IMG/VR virus record: IMGVR_UViG_2737471827_000007
Span: 1-8,284 of that record
Reading direction: 5' to 3' (one strand)
DNA length: 8,284 nt
DNA from: a virus
Taxonomy: Duplodnaviria; Heunggongvirae; Uroviricota; Caudoviricetes
Made by a program: the position numbers and the translations under genes. Positions 1 to 8,284 of this stretch are shown here, one piece after another. The notes under the pieces were generated by a model that was not told the origin of the DNA, did not search any database, and saw only the letters and a list, made by a program, of their open reading frames with translations. Every line of letters begins with the position of its first letter. The stretch's first letter is position 1.

Positions 1-642
1 TTAATCGGACGCTTTTAAATTTTTATTTTTCCCAGCAGAAAAATTAGCTTTCCCGCTGTTTTGCAACTCAACAAGAGGAGATAACCGTCGGTAAACAGCC
101 AAAAGTATCTTTAACTGAACCAGTTCATCTGCCCCCGATAGTTGAACCAAGTTTTTACGTTGTTCTTCACTAAGTGCCATCACAGATTCAAGTGATTTAA
201 CTGCGTCAGAAACAAGTTCAATCTCTTTAATTTGATTCTGTATACGCAGCTTCTCTGATTTCAACTTTGCCCATTCTCTTTGTCGATATGTACGCATCAC
301 CTGATCGTAAACTTTGTTGGCAGCCAGAATACTTCCACCAACAGCAGTAACTAACTCAGCAATCTGCCAAGAGATATCAATAAGAGCAGACAATTCAATA
401 AAGCCAGGAGAGGCATACTGAATTTTTTTCACTACAGGACGTAAATCTGGTGGAGTCGCACTGTAAGCCCCTCTAAAAAAGTTCACCACACTGTGCCCCC
501 CCTCCCAAGGCATTGTTGAATATCCTCTTGATCCTCCTTTTAGGCCATAAAAAAAACCATATAGCTGCAAATACTCTTTCGTTAAGACCGCGAAATCAGC
601 TAACTCCCAACGATTATCAAGCTCAATTATAACTTTTTCCAT
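1..642 (-). CDS. hypothetical protein (213 aa), AT-rich cargo gene downstream of ogr; hydrophobic central segment and coiled-coil-like C-terminal half
   Basis: Complete minus-strand ORF: ATG at 642-640, stop TAA at 3-1. Weak SD-like GGTGGAAA just upstream. The first 60 nt are about one-third GC by my count, clearly lower than the GC-rich P/Q/A genes. Protein has a hydrophobic stretch (SPGFIELSALIDISWQIAELVTAVGGSILAA) followed by a charged heptad-like region (KLKSEKLRIQNQIKEIELVSDAVKSLESV). I do not recognise the family. Confidence 0.7.
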   Translation of the reverse strand: MEKVIIELDNRWELADFAVLTKEYLQLYGFFYGLKGGSRGYSTMPWEGGHSVVNFFRGAYSATPPDLRPVVKKIQYASPGFIELSALIDISWQIAELVTAVGGSILAANKVYDQVMRTYRQREWAKLKSEKLRIQNQIKEIELVSDAVKSLESVMALSEEQRKNLVQLSGADELVQLKILLAVYRRLSPLVELQNSGKANFSAGKNKNLKASD

Positions 643-736
643 TTTCCACCAACCTGTCCAACTTTAAAGATTGACTTTTAAGTATATGATAAACATAGTT
701 TATTAAACGTGATCCACTACTTTTAATGAAGAATAT

Positions 737-775
737 TCCCCAAAACAGAAAGCCCCTCGACTGAGGGGCTTTCTG
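737..775 (-). terminator. intrinsic terminator downstream of ogr (also hairpin-forming on + strand)
   Basis: Perfect 13-bp inverted repeat CAGAAAGCCCCTC (745-757) / GAGGGGCTTTCTG (763-775) with 4-nt loop GACT. On the minus strand the stem is followed by TTTTGGGG (complement of 737-744), directly after the ogr stop at 783. Confidence 0.6.
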
Positions 776-782
776 TTTGTAA

Positions 783-1001
783 TTACATCCACATAATTTG
801 CTGCCCTGACGGCAACGGGTGCGGCCTTACGGCGTGGACTTCTCCCGGCTTCACAATGTATCGCTGTACCGACTCATAAGTGATGAACGTGGCGCTGCAA
901 TTCACGTTCTGACACTGGTGATAACGCTCTTTTGTCGTGTCAGTGATATAGCGACTTGTACGCGCATGTGCGGCATGCTGGCATAAAGGACAATGAAACA
1001 T
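783..1001 (-). CDS. ogr: Ogr/Delta-family zinc-finger late-gene transcriptional activator (72 aa)
   Basis: Translation MFHCPLCQHAAHARTSRYITDTTKERYHQCQNVNCSATFITYESVQRYIVKPGEVHAVRPHPLPSGQQIMWM has the C-X2-C-X22-C-X4-C spacing characteristic of P2 Ogr / P4 Delta. It matches P2 Ogr as far as I can recall, and the 72-aa length matches. Start ATG at 1001-999 has SD AGAGG about 8 nt upstream. The six-frame track opens further upstream at a TTG (1064), which I consider non-coding. Confidence 0.9.
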   Translation of the reverse strand: MFHCPLCQHAAHARTSRYITDTTKERYHQCQNVNCSATFITYESVQRYIVKPGEVHAVRPHPLPSGQQIMWM

Positions 1002-1146
1002 CGCGAGCACCTCTTCCGGTTTTGTTGATGGTGCCATTTTAGTTAATTTATCCTTATAAAACAAATAGATAAAATAAAAACATCACTCATCATCTTCTGT
1101 TTCGTACTCCACATCAGAAAGCCTGACCTCAAGCTCCAGGGACGTC
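1002..1146. promoter_or_regulatory. AT-rich divergent intergenic region expected to carry the ogr promoter and an Ogr-dependent late promoter for P-Q
   Basis: About 145 bp of AT-rich sequence between divergent ogr and P. It contains a partial dyad TGT-N10-ACA (1098-1113), whereas the P2 late-promoter element as I remember it is TGT-N12-ACA, so the match is inexact. Transcription start sites cannot be determined from sequence alone. Confidence 0.3.
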
Positions 1147-1206
1147 GTGAAGCCGCTATTATTCAGAAAATGTGTCACCTTAGTGATTGTCCAGTCCTGC
1201 TCGTCT

Positions 1207-2961
1207 ATGACGCGCTTACACGACCCGCGTCGTCAGGCGGCGCTGCTGTACTGGCAGGGGTTTTCCGTGCCGCAGATTGCCGCCATGTTGCAGATGAAAC
1301 GCCCGACGGTGCAGAGCTGGAAACAGCGCGACGGCTGGGACAGCGTTGCCCCCATCAGCCGTGTCGAAATGAGTCTGGAAGCGCGGCTGACCCAGCTCAT
1401 CATCAAACCGCAGAAAACCGGCGGTGACTTCAAGGAAATTGACCTGCTGGGACGCCAGATTGAACGACTGGCACGGGTAAACCGTTACAGTCAGACCGGC
1501 AACGAGGCAGACCTTAATCCGAACGTCGCTAACCGCAACAAAGGCGGACGGCGCAAACCGAAAAAGAATTTTTTCAGTGACGAGGCCATCGAAAAGCTGG
1601 AGCAGATTTTCTTTGAGCAGTCTTTCGATTATCAGTTGCACTGGTATCGCGCCGGGCTTGAGCACCGCATCCGCGATATCCTGAAATCCCGCCAGATTGG
1701 CGCAACGTTTTATTTTTCCCGCGAGGCGCTGCTGCGCGCCCTGAAAACCGGTCATAACCAGATTTTTCTGTCGGCCAGTAAAACGCAGGCGTATGTGTTC
1801 CGCGAATACATCATCGCCTTTGCCCGGCTGGTTGACGTTGACCTGACCGGTGACCCGATTGTCCTGGGCAATAACGGCGCAAAACTGATTTTTCTCGGCA
1901 CCAACTCCAACACCGCGCAGAGTCATAACGGCGACCTGTATGTCGACGAGATTTTCTGGATCCCGAATTTTCAGGTACTGCGTAAGGTGGCATCAGGTAT
2001 GGCCTCACAGAGTCACCTGCGCTCGACCTATTTCTCCACCCCGTCCACGCTGGCGCACGACGCCTACCCGTTCTGGTCGGGTGAACTGTTTAACCGGGGA
2101 CGCGCCAGCGCCGCTGAACGCGTGGAAATCGACGTCAGTCATAACGCCCTTGCCGGAGGTCTTCTCTGTGCGGACGGCCAGTGGCGGCAGATTGTCACCA
2201 TTGAGGACGCCCTGAAAGGTGGCTGCACATTGTTCGACATTGAGCAGCTTAAACGCGAAAACAGCGCCGACGATTTTAAAAACCTGTTCATGTGTGAATT
2301 TGTTGATGACAAGGCATCGGTATTCCCGTTCGAGGAGCTGCAACGCTGCATGGTCGACACGCTGGAAGAATGGGAAGACTATGCGCCGTTTGCCGCAAAT
2401 CCGTTCGGCTCCCGACCGGTATGGATTGGTTACGACCCGTCACACCGTGGCGACAGCGCCGGATGCGTGGTACTGGCACCGCCGGTGGTGGCCGGTGGCA
2501 AATTCAGAATACTTGAGCGTCACCAGTGGAAAGGTATGGACTTTGCCACCCAGGCGGAATCCATCCGCAAACTCACCGAAAAATACAACGTCGAATACAT
2601 CGGTATTGATGCCACCGGCCTCGGTGTCGGCGTGTTCCAGCTTGTGCGCTCGTTCTATCCCGCCGCGCGCGACATCCGCTACACGCCGGAAATGAAAACC
2701 GCAATGGTGCTCAAGGCAAAAGACGTTATCCGCCGTGGCTGTCTGGAATATGACGTCAGCGCCACCGACATCACCAGCTCGTTCATGGCTATCCGCAAGA
2801 CCATGACCAGCAGCGGACGCAGCGCCACCTATGAGGCCAGCCGCAGCGAGGAAGCCAGCCACGCCGACCTCGCCTGGGCGACCATGCACGCCCTGTTAAA
2901 TGAGCCACTCACCGCCGGTATCAGCACTCCGCTGACATCCACCATTCTGGAGTTTTACTGA
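1207..2961 (+). CDS. P: terminase large (ATPase) subunit, P2 gpP-like
   Basis: Long ORF of 584 aa from ATG 1207, or 604 aa from the alternative in-frame GTG at 1147, which has AGGGA 4 nt upstream. N-terminal region PRRQAALLYWQGFSVPQIAAMLQMKRPTVQSWKQRDGWD and overall length fit P2 gpP (about 590 aa from memory). Stop TGA 2959-2961 overlaps the Q start by 1 nt, as in P2. Confidence 0.9.
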   Translation: MTRLHDPRRQAALLYWQGFSVPQIAAMLQMKRPTVQSWKQRDGWDSVAPISRVEMSLEARLTQLIIKPQKTGGDFKEIDLLGRQIERLARVNRYSQTGNEADLNPNVANRNKGGRRKPKKNFFSDEAIEKLEQIFFEQSFDYQLHWYRAGLEHRIRDILKSRQIGATFYFSREALLRALKTGHNQIFLSASKTQAYVFREYIIAFARLVDVDLTGDPIVLGNNGAKLIFLGTNSNTAQSHNGDLYVDEIFWIPNFQVLRKVASGMASQSHLRSTYFSTPSTLAHDAYPFWSGELFNRGRASAAERVEIDVSHNALAGGLLCADGQWRQIVTIEDALKGGCTLFDIEQLKRENSADDFKNLFMCEFVDDKASVFPFEELQRCMVDTLEEWEDYAPFAANPFGSRPVWIGYDPSHRGDSAGCVVLAPPVVAGGKFRILERHQWKGMDFATQAESIRKLTEKYNVEYIGIDATGLGVGVFQLVRSFYPAARDIRYTPEMKTAMVLKAKDVIRRGCLEYDVSATDITSSFMAIRKTMTSSGRSATYEASRSEEASHADLAWATMHALLNEPLTAGISTPLTSTILEFY

Positions 2962-3995
2962 TGAGCAAGAAAAAAGGGAAAACACCGCAACCTGCGGCAA
3001 AAACAATGACCGCCAGCGCCCCGAAAATGGAGGCATTCACCTTTGGTGAGCCGGTGCCGGTACTCGACCGCCGTGACATTCTGGATTACGTCGAATGCAT
3101 CAGTAACGGCAGATGGTATGAGCCACCAGTCAGCTTTACCGGTCTGGCAAAAAGCCTGCGTGCTGCCGTGCATCACAGCTCCCCGATTTACGTCAAACGT
3201 AATATTCTGGCTTCAACGTTTATCCCGCACCCGTGGCTTTCCCAGCAGGATTTCAGCCGTTTTGTGCTGGATTTTCTGGTGTTCGGTAATGCGTTTCTGG
3301 AAAAGCGTTACAGCACCACCGGTAAGGTCATCAGACTGGAAACCTCACCGGCAAAATATACCCGCCGTGGCGTGGAGGAGGATGTTTACTGGTGGGTGCC
3401 GTCCTTCAACGAGCCGACAGCCTTCACGCCCGGCTCCGTGTTTCACCTGCTGGAGCCGGATATTAATCAGGAGCTGTACGGCCTGCCGGAATATCTCAGC
3501 GCCCTTAACTCTGCCTGGCTGAATGAGTCGGCCACGCTGTTCCGCCGCAAGTATTACGAAAACGGCGCACATGCCGGATACATCATGTACGTCACCGATG
3601 CCGTGCAGGACCGCAACGATATCGAAATGCTTCGCGAAAACATGGTTAAGTCGAAAGGCCGCAACAACTTTAAAAACCTGTTTCTCTATGCCCCGCAGGG
3701 GAAAGCTGACGGCATTAAAATTATCCCGCTCAGTGAAGTGGCAACGAAGGACGATTTTTTTAATATCAAAAAAGCCAGTGCCGCAGACCTGCTGGATGCG
3801 CACCGCATCCCCTTTCAGTTGATGGGCGGCAAGCCGGAGAACGTCGGGTCGTTGGGTGATATTGAGAAAGTGGCAAAGGTCTTTGTCCGCAATGAGCTTA
3901 TCCCGTTACAGGACAGGATCCGCGAGATAAACGGCTGGCTCGGTCAGGAGGTCATCCGCTTTAAAAACTACTCACTGGACACTGACAACGGCTAA
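2961..3995 (+). CDS. Q: portal (capsid portal vertex) protein, P2 gpQ-like (344 aa)
   Basis: 344-aa ORF, the same length as P2 gpQ. ATG at 2961 overlaps the P stop (TGATG). It is immediately upstream of a terminator and the cos site, matching P2 Q-cos synteny. Confidence 0.9.
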   Translation: MSKKKGKTPQPAAKTMTASAPKMEAFTFGEPVPVLDRRDILDYVECISNGRWYEPPVSFTGLAKSLRAAVHHSSPIYVKRNILASTFIPHPWLSQQDFSRFVLDFLVFGNAFLEKRYSTTGKVIRLETSPAKYTRRGVEEDVYWWVPSFNEPTAFTPGSVFHLLEPDINQELYGLPEYLSALNSAWLNESATLFRRKYYENGAHAGYIMYVTDAVQDRNDIEMLRENMVKSKGRNNFKNLFLYAPQGKADGIKIIPLSEVATKDDFFNIKKASAADLLDAHRIPFQLMGGKPENVGSLGDIEKVAKVFVRNELIPLQDRIREINGWLGQEVIRFKNYSLDTDNG

Positions 3996-4000
3996 ACATC

Positions 4001-4022
4001 GCCGCCTGCGGGCGGCTTTTTT
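4001..4022 (+). terminator. rho-independent terminator of the P-Q operon
   Basis: GCCGCC (4001-4006), loop TGCG, GGCGGC (4011-4016), followed by TTTTTT (4017-4022), 6 nt after the Q stop codon. Confidence 0.75.
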
Positions 4023-4164
4023 ACACCCCGTCATCACGCCCTCACACACTCACCACCGCACAAAACAGCCCGCAGACACACCAACGCCCCGGTGCACAAT
4101 CTAAACGCCATCAAGACGCGCTCAGACGCTGAAAAAATAAAATCAGCACCACCGCCAGCGCGCA

Positions 4165-4183
4165 GTGCTTTCCCCGCCTCGCC
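4165..4183 (-). other. P2/P4-type cos cohesive-end sequence (19 nt)
   Basis: Plus strand reads GTGCTTTCCCCGCCTCGCC; its reverse complement GGCGAGGCGGGGAAAGCAC is the 19-nt P2 cohesive end as I remember it. It lies about 170 bp beyond the Q stop, consistent with the P2 left-end arrangement (cos-Q-P). Confidence 0.75.
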
Positions 4184-4468
4184 CGCCCGCTTCACGGGGC
4201 GGTTTTAATGCAGTTGCATAGATACTATGGATCCGCACCAGTCCTGACCGCACGCAGCCTGAACGGACATCCCCAACGCATGCAAAAACATTCACTTGTT
4301 GCATGCATAGCTTTTTAAGTACGCCATACCGCAACTGTACATTTTTAAGCAATTGGCAACTTTAAAAAATTTACATTGCTTTCAAGACCTTATCATCCGT
4401 AGTCTCTGTTTTTTACTTTGAGCTACATCAATAAAATCTCAAACATGTTTAATGCAAAGCCCTTGTTA

Positions 4469-4521
4469 CACAACATAGAATGTATGTCTAGAAACAACGA
4501 CATACTATATGTTGTGTTTTT
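4469..4521 (+). terminator. candidate intrinsic terminator or structured RNA element (interrupted 16-bp hairpin plus T5)
   Basis: CACAACATA (4469-4477) pairs with TATGTTGTG (4508-4516) and GTATGTC (4482-4488) pairs with GACATAC (4499-4505), with a 10-nt apical loop, followed immediately by TTTTT (4517-4521). The stem is AU-rich, so this could equally be a 5' leader structure. Confidence 0.35.
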
Positions 4522-4583
4522 CCGGCTCTCTGTTCGGTGATATGCCAAATCACTTTGCGTTTAAACAGAGCATTATTTCAGGG

Positions 4584-4598
4584 CAAGACTTCGCTCAA
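4584..4598 (+). repeat. 15-bp exact direct repeat, copy 1 (CAAGACTTCGCTCAA)
   Basis: Identical 15-mer recurs at 4848-4862. The two copies bracket the small peptide gene and its terminator. Confidence 0.7.
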
Positions 4599-4661
4599 AA
4601 GTCATTCCACCTAAGAAGCGCATATACCGGTGGAAGTTGCCCTCTACTTACAGGAGGCAAT

Positions 4662-4775
4662 ATGAAGAAATGCTATTACTGCATTCTCGTTCTGGCCCTC
4701 TTTGGCTATCCAAACGGTAGTCCGAGTGGTTTGTCAGTAAACGTCAGTAATATCAATGTCAGCATTATGCTTTAA
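4662..4775 (+). CDS. small hydrophobic peptide (37 aa): MKKCYYCILVLALFGYPNGSPSGLSVNVSNINVSIML
   Basis: Consensus SD AGGAGG (4652-4657) 4 nt before ATG 4662; stop TAA 4773-4775; intrinsic terminator follows 12 nt later. N-terminus is KK plus a 12-13 residue hydrophobic stretch, then a Ser/Asn-rich tail. The six-frame track shows a longer in-frame 88-aa ORF from 4509, but that ATG sits inside a hairpin and has no RBS. Confidence 0.45.
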   Translation: MKKCYYCILVLALFGYPNGSPSGLSVNVSNINVSIML

Positions 4776-4787
4776 TATGCTTCAAAC

Positions 4788-4817
4788 AAAAAAACCACCT
4801 GCCAGGGTGGTTTTTTT
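4788..4817. terminator. bidirectional intrinsic terminator (A7-CCACC-loop-GGTGG-T7)
   Basis: AAAAAAACCACC (4788-4799) and GGTGGTTTTTTT (4806-4817) are perfectly complementary, with loop TGCCAG. The T-run on the plus strand and A-run (T-run on minus) let it terminate both the peptide transcript and the convergent A operon. Confidence 0.6.
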
Positions 4818-4847
4818 GCGCCCATCATCAATACGATGAAAGACTGA

Positions 4848-4862
4848 CAAGACTTCGCTCAA
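4848..4862 (+). repeat. 15-bp exact direct repeat, copy 2 (CAAGACTTCGCTCAA)
   Basis: Identical to 4584-4598. It is embedded in a short reiteration of AAGAC(T/G) at 4841-4846, 4849-4854 and 4861-4866. Confidence 0.7.
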
Positions 4863-4958
4863 GACGAATTATGCGTCGACATAAGGTTACCCGCAATGAT
4901 TTTATTAGACTAAATGGATGGCCTTTTATGACCCGGATCAAACGGCTGTCCTTACCGA

Positions 4959-5009
4959 CATGCTAGTCACTCAATAGCATTTAGCCTTCTAATTCAGCAT
5001 GCTATTGAC
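4959..5009. repeat. operator-like repeat cluster: CATGCTA direct copies with an inverted TAGCAT between them
   Basis: CATGCTAGTCAC (4959-4970) and CATGCTATTGAC (4998-5009) match at 10 of 12 positions, 39 bp apart. The inverted hexamer TAGCAT sits at 4975-4980. The cluster lies in non-coding DNA just 3' of A. Confidence 0.35.
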
Positions 5010-5077
5010 CTTCTGCTGCCCCATAACTGCTCCGCATAAGCCATTCAATGCCATATCAAATCACGTTGTGTTTTTAC

Positions 5078-7354
5078 TCAAATGGGTAACGAGAACCCCG
5101 GCCACTCATCAGCAACCGGATACGTGAATTTTTTCCCGTCATAATTTACGGTCGCGCCACGCGCCAGCGCCTCAAGCTCCCATCGTTGCGGCCTGATACC
5201 GTTCTGAGCGAGGTCAACGCGGATACGGGTAATTTGCAATCGTTCAGACCTGGTCAGTCTGGCAGATGGTGCAATTTCATGCGGTTTTAACGGGATTCCG
5301 TTTCTTTGCTGACGATTTGGTGTTCTCAGTCCGTGTTTTAATGCGCCCCTGAGCGCCATCACGACCTCCGGGTCACTCCATTCGATAACACCGTCATCTA
5401 CCAGATTAAGCACTGCTGCGGCGTGCTCAGAAGGTGTGGGAGCCGGTAACGAAGTATCACCACCGGTGAGCTTTCCACAGTTATTGACAGGACTCCGAGG
5501 CGCGGCGATGCCGCTTTTTAAAGTCAAAGGCTCAACGACCGGCACTTTCGGAACAATGCGCCAGTCCGTCGTTCTGGTGATATGAATATGACGCGCGCCG
5601 AGATGCGGCGCGTAAATGCCGACCACTCTCTCGACTTCTTCCTCGTACTCGTTAACGTCATCCGACGGACTACGGGCGACCCTGACAGTCTGACAATCGC
5701 GCGGGACATTTGCCCCACCCTGCGCGCTGATATACAACGCAAAATCACCACTGTCTGCGGCAGCGCGAGCAGCCTCGACGCGTTCGTCAAACTCATCAGC
5801 AATACTGACGCCGCGAGGCAATTTGCGTAGTTCACGGTAAGCCCCCATTGTCGGCAGTCCAACCGTTTTAAATTGCGGGATGCGCCACGTTGACGCCCAT
5901 GCGGTAACAGCCGCGGCAGTATCTTTAAGCGGCTTACCGGTATCGTTATCGAGCTGACCATCCAGTGCATAGCCGTCGATATTTTTTGAAATGTATTTCG
6001 CGATATATCCCGCAGCACCGCCCCGGTTAAGGTGCTTTGCCTGAAAACGGTTTCGCGCGGCTCCTCTTTCGTCACCATCCTCTTTGAGCGCATAGCGACG
6101 CATGATTTCGATAATCTGGTTACGCTGGCGTGGATTACAAAAAAGCATCATATGCCAGTGCGGCGTTCCGTCGTGGTGTGGCTCGACGACACGCAAACCG
6201 TAGACCTGTAAATCATTATCCTTGAATGCCGTGCGCATCAGGCTCCAGATGCGGCAGAGATAACGCTGCGCATCCTTTGGATTAAATGCCTCATCGTTCC
6301 AGCCGTGATTAAGCTGAACGGTTTTACTTTCGCCTTTTCTGACCTGACGAGTCGGGTGATACTTTGACGGCGCGGTCAGCGTGATAAACATCCCCACATC
6401 ACCCTCTGCGGCGGCGTAACGCTCAATACCGGCAATGGTGTTCATCAGCTCCATCCGGCGAATTTCAGGATTAGAAATACTGCCCATCACCTTACTGATA
6501 AGGTCGATGCGCTCGCCGGTTTCCCTGTTTTCAAGGTCACACGATTTAAGAAATTCCAGATTTGCCTGGCGGCGCGCACGCACATCACGAATGGCGTGTT
6601 TACTGGCATAAGGAGAACGGTCTTTATTGACCTCCCCGACAGCTATCAGTAACGCTTCATGCCAGCGCATACGCTGGCCTTTAAGCTGATGAGTCCACCA
6701 CTCATCGTTAAACAGACGGGCAATGGCAGAATATGCCTGCCTCGTGGTCATCTGCCCTTTACGGTATTTTTTCCAGTAGAGCGGGGAAATATTGAAAGCA
6801 CGTGCAGCGCCAGCAACATGACCATAGAGGTGAGCCTGCGCCTCATCCGTAAACAGCGATTCTTTTTCGCCATGCGCATCCACCCAGGCATCGCTGAGTT
6901 CCTCATACATCATGAAAAGCTGCGATGAGATACGGGCAGCAAACTTTTTCAGCTCCTTGTCATTCATTCCCGGCAGGCGCGCATAGTGGTCACGCTCTGC
7001 CAGAAACAGTAACGACGCGTCGGTGTTCATTTCATGGCGCTGATTCACACGCTCAATGCGCGGCCATAAACGACGCTGAAAAGTGGATGTGAGGAAATAA
7101 AACCCGTGCACCGGGCTTTTATTGCGCCGGATGTAGTCATAGCGTGAAGTAAACAGCGAGCGCAAAAAGTAAGGCAGGCGGTTAATCGTGGATAAAACAC
7201 CTTGCACCTGACGCATCTCGTCACGTGTAAGGGGTCTTTCGCGCCCGACGGCCTCGCGTGGCGCGTTCCATGCATAAGCACCGGTAAACGCCTTACCGGT
7301 GCCTGCAGCAAATGCTGACGGAGGGACAAAACGCCCGGAGGCTTTAACGGCCAT
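5078..7354 (-). CDS. A: rolling-circle replication initiation endonuclease, P2 gpA-like (HUH/Y-X3-Y)
   Basis: 758 aa from ATG 7354 (the ORF opens at TTG 7396, giving 772 aa); P2 gpA is about 761 aa from memory. Contains HUH-type motif PHWHMM and paired catalytic tyrosines in YIAKYISKNIDGY. Confidence 0.9.
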   Translation of the reverse strand: MAVKASGRFVPPSAFAAGTGKAFTGAYAWNAPREAVGRERPLTRDEMRQVQGVLSTINRLPYFLRSLFTSRYDYIRRNKSPVHGFYFLTSTFQRRLWPRIERVNQRHEMNTDASLLFLAERDHYARLPGMNDKELKKFAARISSQLFMMYEELSDAWVDAHGEKESLFTDEAQAHLYGHVAGAARAFNISPLYWKKYRKGQMTTRQAYSAIARLFNDEWWTHQLKGQRMRWHEALLIAVGEVNKDRSPYASKHAIRDVRARRQANLEFLKSCDLENRETGERIDLISKVMGSISNPEIRRMELMNTIAGIERYAAAEGDVGMFITLTAPSKYHPTRQVRKGESKTVQLNHGWNDEAFNPKDAQRYLCRIWSLMRTAFKDNDLQVYGLRVVEPHHDGTPHWHMMLFCNPRQRNQIIEIMRRYALKEDGDERGAARNRFQAKHLNRGGAAGYIAKYISKNIDGYALDGQLDNDTGKPLKDTAAAVTAWASTWRIPQFKTVGLPTMGAYRELRKLPRGVSIADEFDERVEAARAAADSGDFALYISAQGGANVPRDCQTVRVARSPSDDVNEYEEEVERVVGIYAPHLGARHIHITRTTDWRIVPKVPVVEPLTLKSGIAAPRSPVNNCGKLTGGDTSLPAPTPSEHAAAVLNLVDDGVIEWSDPEVVMALRGALKHGLRTPNRQQRNGIPLKPHEIAPSARLTRSERLQITRIRVDLAQNGIRPQRWELEALARGATVNYDGKKFTYPVADEWPGFSLPI
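5484..5503 (-). other. candidate replication origin / gpA nick site inside the A coding sequence
   Basis: Minus strand reads GCGCCTCGGAGTCCTGTCAA. This matches what I recall as the P2 ori sequence cleaved by gpA, and P2 ori is known to lie within the 3' part of gene A. The match is to memory only. Confidence 0.3.
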
Positions 7355-7619
7355 ATGAGCCAAAAGCCTCTGAACAACGCCTGCTGAGTTGCTCAACCTG
7401 CGCGTTTAAATCAGCAAAAGACTTTGCGCTTCCGGTCAGAATATCGTGATGCATCAGGCTGGAAACGAGCTGGCTTAATTTCGGATAATAACCAACCACC
7501 GCCAGCCATTCCTGACCGGCGTTTTTACCGCTTTCCGCTCTCTTTTTCTCGTGGAGAATAAACTGAAAGCTGTCACTGGTAACGACATAACGTTCGCCAA
7601 TTTCAATACGAATACTCAT
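7344..7619 (-). CDS. hypothetical small protein (91 aa) upstream of and overlapping A; early-operon small ORF
   Basis: ATG at 7619 with SD GGAG 6 nt upstream; stop overlaps the A start (7354) by 11 nt, suggesting coupled expression. Translation MSIRIEIGERYVVTSDSFQFILHEKK... has no motif I recognise and no Cys cluster, so it is not an Ogr- or DksA-like finger. Confidence 0.6.
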   Translation of the reverse strand: MSIRIEIGERYVVTSDSFQFILHEKKRAESGKNAGQEWLAVVGYYPKLSQLVSSLMHHDILTGSAKSFADLNAQVEQLSRRCSEAFGSYGR

Positions 7620-7699
7620 GCCGTTCTCCGGTAATGTTTGTTTTTTGCTTCAAAGACTGACTGGCAGGAAACACAACGCGTGGCTGACGGATATCCGGC

Positions 7700-8284
7700 A
7701 TGTTCACAAAATTAATTCAATTGGATGAATTTTCCGGGCAACACCCAATTCACGGACTGCCGCCACTGGCGGAGGCCAACCCTGAAATGACGTTCCTGGA
7801 AAAAGCAGAAATCGAAAAACTGTTAAATGTTTTGGCTGGTGATGACTTACTTGTCGCGCTTTTATGTCTGAGCACTGGAGGAAGATGGACGGAAGTTGCC
7901 ACGCTAAAACCAGCACAGATTACAAATTGCAGGGTTACCTTCCTGAAAACCAAAAACGGTAAAAAGCGAACCGTGCCGATTTCTGAGGAACTGGAGAAAA
8001 AAGTTAAAGAGGAGGCCAGCGCCAAATTATTCAAAGTTGATTATGAGAAATTTTGCGGGATTTTACGCAGAGTGAAACCTGATATACCACCCAATCAGGC
8101 AACCCACATCCTGCGGCATACATTCGCAAGCCATTTCATGATGAATGGGGGCAATATAATCGCACTGCAACAGATTCTGGGACATGCGAGCATTCAGCAG
8201 ACGATGGCCTATGCGCACCTTGCGCCTGACTATCTGCAAAATGCCGTCGCTCTGAATCCACTAAAAGGCGGAGTGACGTTATAA
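7700..8284 (+). CDS. tyrosine recombinase (phage integrase family), catalytic domain only, 194 aa
   Basis: Box I TGGRWTE, box II HILRHTFASHF, and LGHASIQQTMAYAHL with the catalytic Tyr. An in-frame TGA at 7685-7687 limits any N-terminal extension to 4 codons, so the protein lacks the usual arm- and core-binding N-terminal domains of full integrases (330-400 aa). There is no obvious SD. Confidence 0.8.
   Translation: MFTKLIQLDEFSGQHPIHGLPPLAEANPEMTFLEKAEIEKLLNVLAGDDLLVALLCLSTGGRWTEVATLKPAQITNCRVTFLKTKNGKKRTVPISEELEKKVKEEASAKLFKVDYEKFCGILRRVKPDIPPNQATHILRHTFASHFMMNGGNIIALQQILGHASIQQTMAYAHLAPDYLQNAVALNPLKGGVTL

Follow-up and report, generated by a model that had tools for sequence, protein, structure and literature searches.

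The window analysed here is an 8,284-nucleotide (nt) stretch of DNA, positions 1 to 8,284 of the IMG/VR virus record IMGVR_UViG_2737471827_000007 (Caudoviricetes). Between its presumed P2 cos site and the replication gene A it carries a small-peptide gene, faced on the opposite strand by the predicted gene of an antisense small RNA; the two together are referred to below as the module. An earlier reading of the same letters (the original prediction) had pointed to the peptide gene and to a pair of 15-nt direct repeats around it. The features of the locus, in window coordinates, are the following:

4165-4183: the P2 cos 19-mer
About 4410-4945 (about 540 base pairs, bp): the whole conserved module, as delimited by homology of the Escherichia coli P2-prophage copies with plasmid, Citrobacter, Kluyvera and metagenome copies
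4452-4481, plus strand: candidate promoter of the peptide mRNA, ATGCAA (4452-4457), an 18-nt spacer and TAGAAT (4476-4481)
4490-4817, plus strand: predicted peptide mRNA (about 330 nt, with a 5' untranslated region, 5'UTR, of about 170 nt), as deduced from the candidate promoter and the terminator
4528-4570, plus strand: stem-loop 1, in which helix A (4528-4534/4564-4570) encloses helix B (4536-4541/4549-4554)
4584-4598, plus strand: direct repeat 1, the predicted target of the antisense RNA, in the single-stranded linker between stem-loops 1 and 2
4605-4635, plus strand: stem-loop 2 (helix C), TTCCACC/GGTGGAA at 4605-4611/4629-4635, with the loop A(G/A)AAGCGCA(U/G)AUA
4652-4657, plus strand: Shine-Dalgarno sequence AGGAGG, 4 nt ahead of the ATG at 4662
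4662-4775, plus strand: open reading frame (ORF) of 37 codons, product MKKCYYCILVLALFGYPNGSPSGLSVNVSNINVSIML
4787-4818, both strands: bidirectional intrinsic terminator, a perfect 13-nt inverted repeat (4787-4799/4806-4818)
4788-4861, minus strand: predicted antisense small RNA (about 74 nt), with the seed UGAGCGAAGUCUUG at its 5' end, followed by a middle hairpin (4844-4820) and then by an A-rich linker and the terminator
4848-4862, minus strand: direct repeat 2, from which the predicted antisense RNA would take its 5' seed (reverse complement of repeat 1)
4868-4907, minus strand: candidate promoter of the antisense RNA, TAATAAA (4907-4901), a -35 element TTGCGG (4896-4891), a 17-nt spacer and a -10 element CATAAT (4873-4868)
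5078-7396, minus strand: replication gene A

The AGGAGG sequence and the 37-codon ORF named in the original prediction were both found at these positions, and the comparison of related copies upheld the proposal that they form a self-contained small-peptide gene in the style of type I toxins. The Shine-Dalgarno sequence reads GGAGG in 11 of the 12 copies compared and GGUGG in the twelfth, L072. Every true module examined keeps the start codon, the stop codon and a length of 37 to 38 codons, the 38-codon case being an in-frame insertion of one codon in Kluyvera. Between the window and the plasmid copies, 8 to 10 codons of the ORF differ synonymously, and on either strand it is the sole ORF common to all copies. 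This conservation, of the type seen in coding sequences, indicates that ORF 4662-4775 is a real gene. The sole disrupted or extended copy seen is an E. coli variant (P0003, from an NCBI genome), in which the stop codon is lost and readthrough extends the peptide to 68 amino acids (aa). Two other ORFs were considered and rejected: an 88-aa ORF starting at 4509, whose upstream frame is shut in other copies by stops after 5 to 33 codons, at varying places; and a minus-strand ORF of 37 aa (4828-4941), which has a TTG start, lies across the candidate promoter of the small RNA and is missing in Kluyvera, L031 and L072.

The peptide has a basic N-terminus, a hydrophobic core of 11 to 12 residues (residues 4-14), an invariant segment G-Y-P-x-G-S-x-S-G and then a tail; core and invariant segment together follow the pattern C-I-[LI]-[VL]-L-x-L-x-G-Y-P-x-G-S-x-S-G. 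The tail of 14 residues is uncharged, rich in Ser and Asn, and alternates strictly between hydrophobic and polar residues in a strand-like manner. The hydrophobic core resembles a signal sequence or a membrane anchor, and would suit a small peptide targeted to the inner membrane. In the databases the family stands by itself. The peptides had no match in Pfam or NCBIfam (E<=10); none of the PADLOC families of anti-phage defence systems was matched; PHROGs returned only noise (E=0.2-0.3); and a phmmer search of 1.84 billion representative proteins recovered 7 family members and nothing besides. A protein search with the 88-aa extended ORF gave near-identical calls only. In one phage record the peptide is annotated, as a hypothetical protein.

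The sequence CAAGACTTCGCTCAA occurs exactly at 4584-4598 and at 4848-4862 of the plus strand, and no further match to it was found in the window at up to 3 mismatches (shuffled sequences gave a mean of 0.29 such matches). By arithmetic, an exact 15-mer pair within the 894-bp interval between cos and A has an expectation of about 4e-4, in keeping with the order of 1e-3 estimated earlier for these 15-mers. Because the two are direct repeats transcribed from opposite strands, the seed of the predicted small RNA, over its first 14-17 nt, is perfectly complementary to repeat 1. The core of repeat 1, GCAAGACTTCGCTC, is kept in all copies; the cores of both repeats are conserved and their flanks divergent, as would be expected if one repeat were the target in the mRNA and the other encoded the complementary 5' end of an antisense RNA transcribed convergently. 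The predicted duplex between seed and repeat 1 runs uninterrupted for 14 to 18 bp in all 12 copies, starting from nucleotide 1 or 2 of the small RNA, and its position is constant, with its end 62 to 65 nt upstream of the AUG (repeat 1 itself spans 63 to 78 nt upstream). Within the core of repeat 1 just two substitutions were seen, one in Kluyvera (C to U) and one in L072 (A to G); in either case a Watson-Crick pair becomes G.U and the pairing is kept.

The strong terminator that had been proposed downstream of the ORF is present at 4787-4818 and can be read on both strands, because an A-run precedes it on the left and a T-run follows it on the right (A7, CCACC, a 6-nt loop, GGTGG, T7). It folds as a terminator hairpin and is invariant in all copies except for one loop base. 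To the right of repeat 2, the minus strand of 13 out of 13 non-redundant copies contains TAATAAA, TTGCG[GA], exactly 17 variable nt, CATAAT, 7 variable nt and GAGCGAAG, in this order; we infer from this pattern the phylogenetic footprint of a promoter placed directly upstream of repeat 2. A simple promoter and terminator scan missed the terminator as well as both candidate promoters, and conservation, repeats and folding were used instead.

The predicted small RNA folds with its 5' seed free or weakly paired (z-scores of -1.6 to -4.0). Its middle hairpin was found in 13/13 copies, built from unrelated sequences in each lineage, and in all 13 it is more stable as minus-strand RNA (mean of -8.2 vs -4.7 kcal/mol), owing to G.U pairs. 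For this predicted transcript the components of an antisense RNA can be recognised: complementarity over 14 to 18 nt, a hairpin, a terminator and a promoter footprint that is conserved. An Rfam scan of the whole window produced only sub-threshold matches to Phe_leader and RNAI, both on the terminator, and no known antitoxin RNA. In prophages the predicted small RNA has the same orientation as gene A and follows it downstream at about 215 nt, and therefore readthrough from the early operon would presumably also supply antisense sequence.

On the plus strand, ATGCAA and TA[GA]AAT are invariant in 13/13 copies, separated by a spacer of fixed length and variable sequence. The leader that would follow this candidate promoter is structured. 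Across 12 sequences, its three helices have 94.4% of their cells paired, with two-sided changes in 8 pairs. These values were not attained in any of 500 column shuffles, and controls in which the helices were slid along the alignment were 39-47% paired. In stem-loop 1, 100% of the cells are paired and three helix A pairs carry two-sided compensatory changes (in L031 and L072), while helix B has an invariant G.U pair which favours the plus strand. The inverted repeat at 4605-4635, described earlier as a weak one, proved to be a real, covarying RNA stem: 5 of the 8 pairs of helix C are changed on both sides, and the stem sequence is wholly different in L072, L031 and the plasmids. Repeat 1 would be an accessible target, since it lies in the linker between the two stem-loops.

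Several further elements of the leader are worth recording. CCTCT lies at 4641-4645, just upstream of the Shine-Dalgarno sequence, and a local sequestration of the latter, as suggested in the original prediction, forms in the minimum-energy fold of the window. A long-range pairing of a 5' CCUCU with the Shine-Dalgarno sequence, proposed by RNAalifold, was rejected: it shows no covariation and is broken in L072, where the competing helix A is doubly compensated. Stem-loop 2 has a near-invariant loop (4612-4628) despite the complete change of its stem, and RNAalifold pairs the GCGCA of this loop with the invariant UGCGU of stem-loop 1 (4556-4560), which suggests that the two are in tertiary contact or pair alternatively. 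The candidate -10 element and start site are straddled by a perfect 10-nt inverted repeat, ACACAACATA/TATGTTGTGT at 4468-4477/4508-4517; the Kluyvera and L072 copies share its core, ACAACAT...ATGTTGT, which L031 has lost through a deletion. The repeat could serve as an operator or, should transcription begin further upstream, form a 5' hairpin.

The extent of the module was obtained from an alignment of 10 copies with 74-100% identity. Its edges hold conserved blocks kept between prophage and plasmid copies: on the left (4410-4447) TTTTTACYTTG, ATCAATAAAA and AAACAT, and on the right (4922-4941, minus strand) TTGAT-N5-GTCATAAAAG. The region 4200-5077 of the window was found at >=80% coverage in 149 of 5426 complete E. 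coli genomes, and the region 4500-4900 in 152/5426, always adjoining gene A of a P2-like prophage; at these loci the PGAP annotation contains nothing. The unit that recurs across P2-like prophages is the larger module of about 540 bp. Copies of about 75% identity are carried by 408 of 72,556 plasmids, 392 of the 408 in Klebsiella and mostly conjugative IncFIB/FII; the plasmid BLAST matches span 4500-4874 of the window, and their surroundings are unrelated to phage (insertion sequence, IS, elements, ABC transporters, a dinQ gene). Plasmids of the pKN-LS6 type are among the Klebsiella carriers. On plasmid pJ53-KPC_Vir the annotated dinQ type I toxin gene lies about 1 kb from the module copy (L009 2818-2955), and two RNA-controlled small-toxin loci may be clustered there. 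More copies were found in Citrobacter and Kluyvera genomes, in metagenome contigs and in IMG/VR; chance matches of the pattern scan in unrelated genes were dropped (4/24 metagenome, 4/30 viral).

In P2, the interval between cos and A carries orf91-tin-old. In the window the corresponding interval (4184-5077, 894 bp) is occupied solely by the cassette, with the cos 19-mer at 4165-4183 on one side and gene A ending at 5078 on the other; this placement, together with the comparison of related copies, agrees with the view of an accessory element at the P2 cos-to-A position. The suggestion that it is itself the variable cargo of this hotspot did not hold, as the module co-occurs with different cargos: the genes next to it vary among E. 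coli genomes and include a SIR2 protein, an AAA ATPase pair and ImmA/IrrE sets. In E. coli W (L001 3716-5984) and in one O121 strain, GTVSS-020 (L004 6431-8984), the cargo is located between Q and cos, and the module stands alone between cos and A; in E. coli W the module is at about 2,327,630-2,328,165 of NC_017664.1. Strains 447, EC1 and O121 201805972 (L005-L007, about 1010-3441) have their cargo between cos and the module, which suggests two insertion zones, one on either side of cos. The presence of the same module beside gene A with differing cargo, and in unrelated plasmid contexts, argues that it is an independent unit.

Taken together, these results make it very probable that the locus is a real module of a peptide gene and an antisense RNA. 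The argument is carried by the conservation of the features with one another, the coding-type conservation of the ORF, the RNA-type covariation of the leader and a complementarity whose position is fixed, all of which can be read in the aligned sequences. With moderate confidence, we further propose that the module is a type I toxin-antitoxin-like pair of a new family, combining a layout like that of par (Fst/RNA II) with a peptide in the style of TimP. In this proposal the two promoters and their transcripts, the direction of the regulation, the toxicity and the biological role are all inferred from sequence. The plus-strand mRNA (from about 4490 to about 4817), with its structured leader, would encode an inner-membrane-type peptide. 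The minus-strand promoter to the right of repeat 2 would fire towards the ORF and yield an RNA of about 74 nt stopping at the shared terminator. The 5' end of this RNA would pair with repeat 1, perhaps aided by the complementary terminator hairpins, and thereby prevent synthesis of the peptide, either because a ribosome standby or entry site is blocked or because the duplex is cleaved. Upon loss of the presumably unstable small RNA, the peptide would be made and the cell damaged or arrested, and the carrier prophage or plasmid would in this way be stabilised; in principle, the same pair could act as an abortive-infection switch.

Two known systems come closest. In par of the Enterococcus faecalis plasmid pAD1, convergent promoters share a bidirectional terminator and the complementarity is provided by direct repeats (PMC7472228). 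The module would similarly have two convergent units facing each other (with promoters predicted here) and a single bidirectional terminator, and in all copies DNA direct repeats read from opposite strands (4584-4598, 4848-4862) give the RNA-RNA complementarity; stem-loops in the toxin leader and carriage by plasmids and phages are also common to both (PMC7472228, PMC8594479). It differs from par in having one pair of repeats, where par has two (DRa, DRb), and in the place of the interaction, since the par repeats overlap the toxin initiation region whereas the duplex of the module would end well upstream of the AUG. Unlike Fst and Ldr, the peptide lacks a transmembrane helix with a charged C-terminal tail and has no Pfam match, and its hosts are Enterobacterales. 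An antisense RNA gene on the 3' side whose interaction takes place outside the overlap is listed in the T1TAdb paper for Gram-positive families only (PMC8594479).

The second system is TimP/TimR (ryfA/ryfB) of Salmonella and E. coli, in which a peptide of 38-41 aa with a signal-like N-terminus is repressed by pairing of the small RNA 5' end in the 5'UTR (PMC7667032). The likeness includes a length of about 40 residues, a basic N-terminus, Cys-x-Cys-Ile, a short signal-like core and an Asn/Ser-rich polar tail, as well as an mRNA about 300 nt long whose 5'UTR takes up about 145-170 nt (predicted for the module), pairing of the small RNA 5' end within that 5'UTR (likewise predicted), and, at the DNA level, a complementarity visible as a direct repeat whose two copies are read from opposite strands. 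The arrangement is different: the TimR gene is divergent and upstream, and the small RNA gene of the module is convergent and downstream. The timP mRNA moreover has no strong Shine-Dalgarno sequence and uses a pseudoknot (PMC11228461), whereas the mRNA of the module has AGGAGG. The peptide itself was rejected as a TimP. Six family members gave no match to NF040796 (E<=10), for which the TimP control scored 86.8 bits (7.8e-25); hhalign of the peptide against TimP gave a probability of 10% over 11 residues; the phmmer search of the 1.84 billion representatives returned no TimP; and Rfam ryfA (RF00126) had no match at E<=1 across the window.

TisB/IstR-1, ZorO/OrzO, ShoB/OhsC and DinQ/AgrB resemble the module in a short pairing, predicted at 14-17 nt for the module, in the 5'UTR, well upstream of the ribosome-binding site and not antisense to the coding region (PMC8594479). 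Their small RNA genes are located 5' of the toxin gene and are divergent, while that of the module is 3', convergent and shares the terminator; none of the four systems had an NCBIfam, Pfam or Rfam match in the module. With Hok/Sok, named in the original prediction as the precedent for phage exclusion, the module shares a small peptide gene under RNA control on mobile elements, but it has no Hok/Gef domain match, no overlapping mok-like frame and no Rfam Sok match, and whereas Sok overlaps the hok leader in cis, the two RNAs of the module would overlap at the terminator only.

Several observations weigh against the toxin-antitoxin proposal or weaken individual parts of it. The hydrophobic core is just 11-12 residues long, with a 19-residue Kyte-Doolittle mean of 0.9-1.6, and the transmembrane helix of classical type I toxins is longer. 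Each candidate promoter agrees with the sigma-70 consensus at no more than 8 of 12 positions, which for that of the antisense RNA is below the threshold of the scan. In the E. coli variant L008 a C to A change at the duplex edge of repeat 1 leaves 13 bp, and the support from covariation comes from about 6-7 independent lineages. Sequestration of the ribosome-binding site is usual in type I systems, yet across the family the candidate pairings with the Shine-Dalgarno sequence (CCUCU/GGAGG, UUGCC/GGCAA) did no better than slid controls. Finally, the module is absent from all of plasmid pKPN3 of K. pneumoniae MGH 78578, the strain used for dRNA-seq, RIP-seq and RIL-seq (PMC10907235); KpnR_124, KpnR_127 and KpnR_128 are other loci.

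The alternative which survives best, although we hold it to be unlikely, is that the peptide is a small, non-toxic membrane or periplasmic protein whose level is tuned by the antisense RNA, such as a lysogenic-conversion or plasmid accessory factor acting in envelope modulation or superinfection exclusion. All of the structural evidence for a peptide gene and an antisense RNA fits it equally; the short core and the conserved alternating tail are unlike those of pore-forming type I toxins; and TimP, when natively expressed, permits growth (PMC7667032). It is disfavoured by the nature of the carriers (prophages, a decayed prophage remnant and large conjugative plasmids), by a convergent layout with shared terminator and repeats that has the look of addiction modules (PMC7472228), and by the tight, multi-layer RNA control, which would be unusual for a harmless peptide of 37 residues.

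It is improbable that the minus-strand small RNA acts in trans on host or phage mRNAs, or is the 3' end of the early transcript of gene A, with repeat 1 and the ORF being secondary (a decoy or sponge). The anatomy of the RNA is indeed that of enterobacterial small RNAs (5' seed, hairpin, A/U-rich linker, Rho-independent terminator), and its orientation and distance relative to gene A in prophages are as described above. However, the ORF has a coding-type conservation of its own, a conserved Shine-Dalgarno sequence and a fixed length, plasmid copies without gene A retain the promoter footprint, and the window contains no other seed match even at 3 mismatches.

The original prediction had taken the 15-mers for marks of insertion, duplication or site-specific exchange, delimiting a mobile cassette of 264 bp. 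The presence of an exact direct repeat of 15 bp in a place known as a recombination hotspot would fit this view, but we now consider it very improbable: in the alignment, homology between prophage and plasmid copies extends about 170 bp to the left of repeat 1 and about 80 bp to the right of repeat 2, and since it spans from about 4410 to about 4945, the 15-mers are internal and not scars of insertion or exchange. In addition, no empty-site copy with a single repeat was found, and the repeat core is kept through 25% sequence divergence, unlike scars.

It is scarcely credible that a larger, deleted gene has left the ORF as its 3' remnant, or that the ORF is there by chance, with no more than an early-operon terminator behind it: the frame is open for 61 codons upstream in the window (the 88-aa ORF from 4509) and the longer form is sometimes called by gene callers, but the alignments contradict this alternative, which the original prediction had itself raised, since the upstream frame is closed elsewhere, the ATG, Shine-Dalgarno sequence and 37-38-codon length are constant, and neither form of the ORF matches a protein family.

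Returning to the toxin-antitoxin-like pair, we regard it as about an even call whether it represents a previously unrecognised type I family of the Enterobacterales, with a convergent, shared-terminator, direct-repeat layout and a signal-anchor peptide unrelated to known toxins, serving to stabilise its carrier and possibly as an abortive-infection switch. Full-text literature searches with the peptide sequence, the repeat sequence and a description of such a module returned nothing relevant. One P2 hotspot survey collected, from the stretch between gpA and gpQ, only proteins that were annotated (PMC9122126), and a module of this kind would for that reason have been missed; another took annotated genes and pseudogenes. 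If the proposal is correct, the enterobacterial type I repertoire would gain a new toxin family and a new gene layout, and the par-type convergent design would extend beyond Gram-positives. Such a module would be present in about 3% of complete E. coli genomes and, as an unannotated maintenance or stress module, on clinically important Klebsiella plasmids (hundreds of IncF resistance and virulence plasmids). With a 15-nt seed, one target site and a product of 37 residues, it would also make a clean experimental system.

The window as a whole (1-8284) is a heavily deleted, decayed P2-like prophage remnant. In addition to gene A and the cos 19-mer, it contains a DUF5405 gene, an integrase fragment and the following genes:

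783-1064, minus strand: ogr
1147-2961: terminase gene P
2961-3995: portal gene Q

The sequence GTGCTTTCCCCGCCTCGCC at 4165-4183 is the reverse complement of what we take to be the 19-nt cohesive end of P2 (GGCGAGGCGGGGAAAGCAC); it was found in 60 of the P2-like loci retrieved, and is placed about 170 bp past Q and about 900 bp ahead of A. Ogr and a fragment of D are fused straight to terminase P, with the head, tail and lysis genes all gone, and at the other end A, DUF5405 and a TraR fragment run into a truncated integrase. A near-identical E. coli relative of the window sits between fieF and cpxP, and its D, TraR and int are annotated as fragments. The module of peptide and RNA has outlived this decay. 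A 30-nt direct repeat of 73% identity was also observed, one copy of which (4533-4562) corresponds to the helix B region of the leader, with the other (5044-5073) lying directly after the stop codon of gene A; it may be the vestige of a second, decayed copy of the module, or due to chance. At the edge of the prophage, adjoining ogr, the minus strand of positions 1-642 encodes a hypothetical protein of 213 aa (WP_000416606.1 in a relative).

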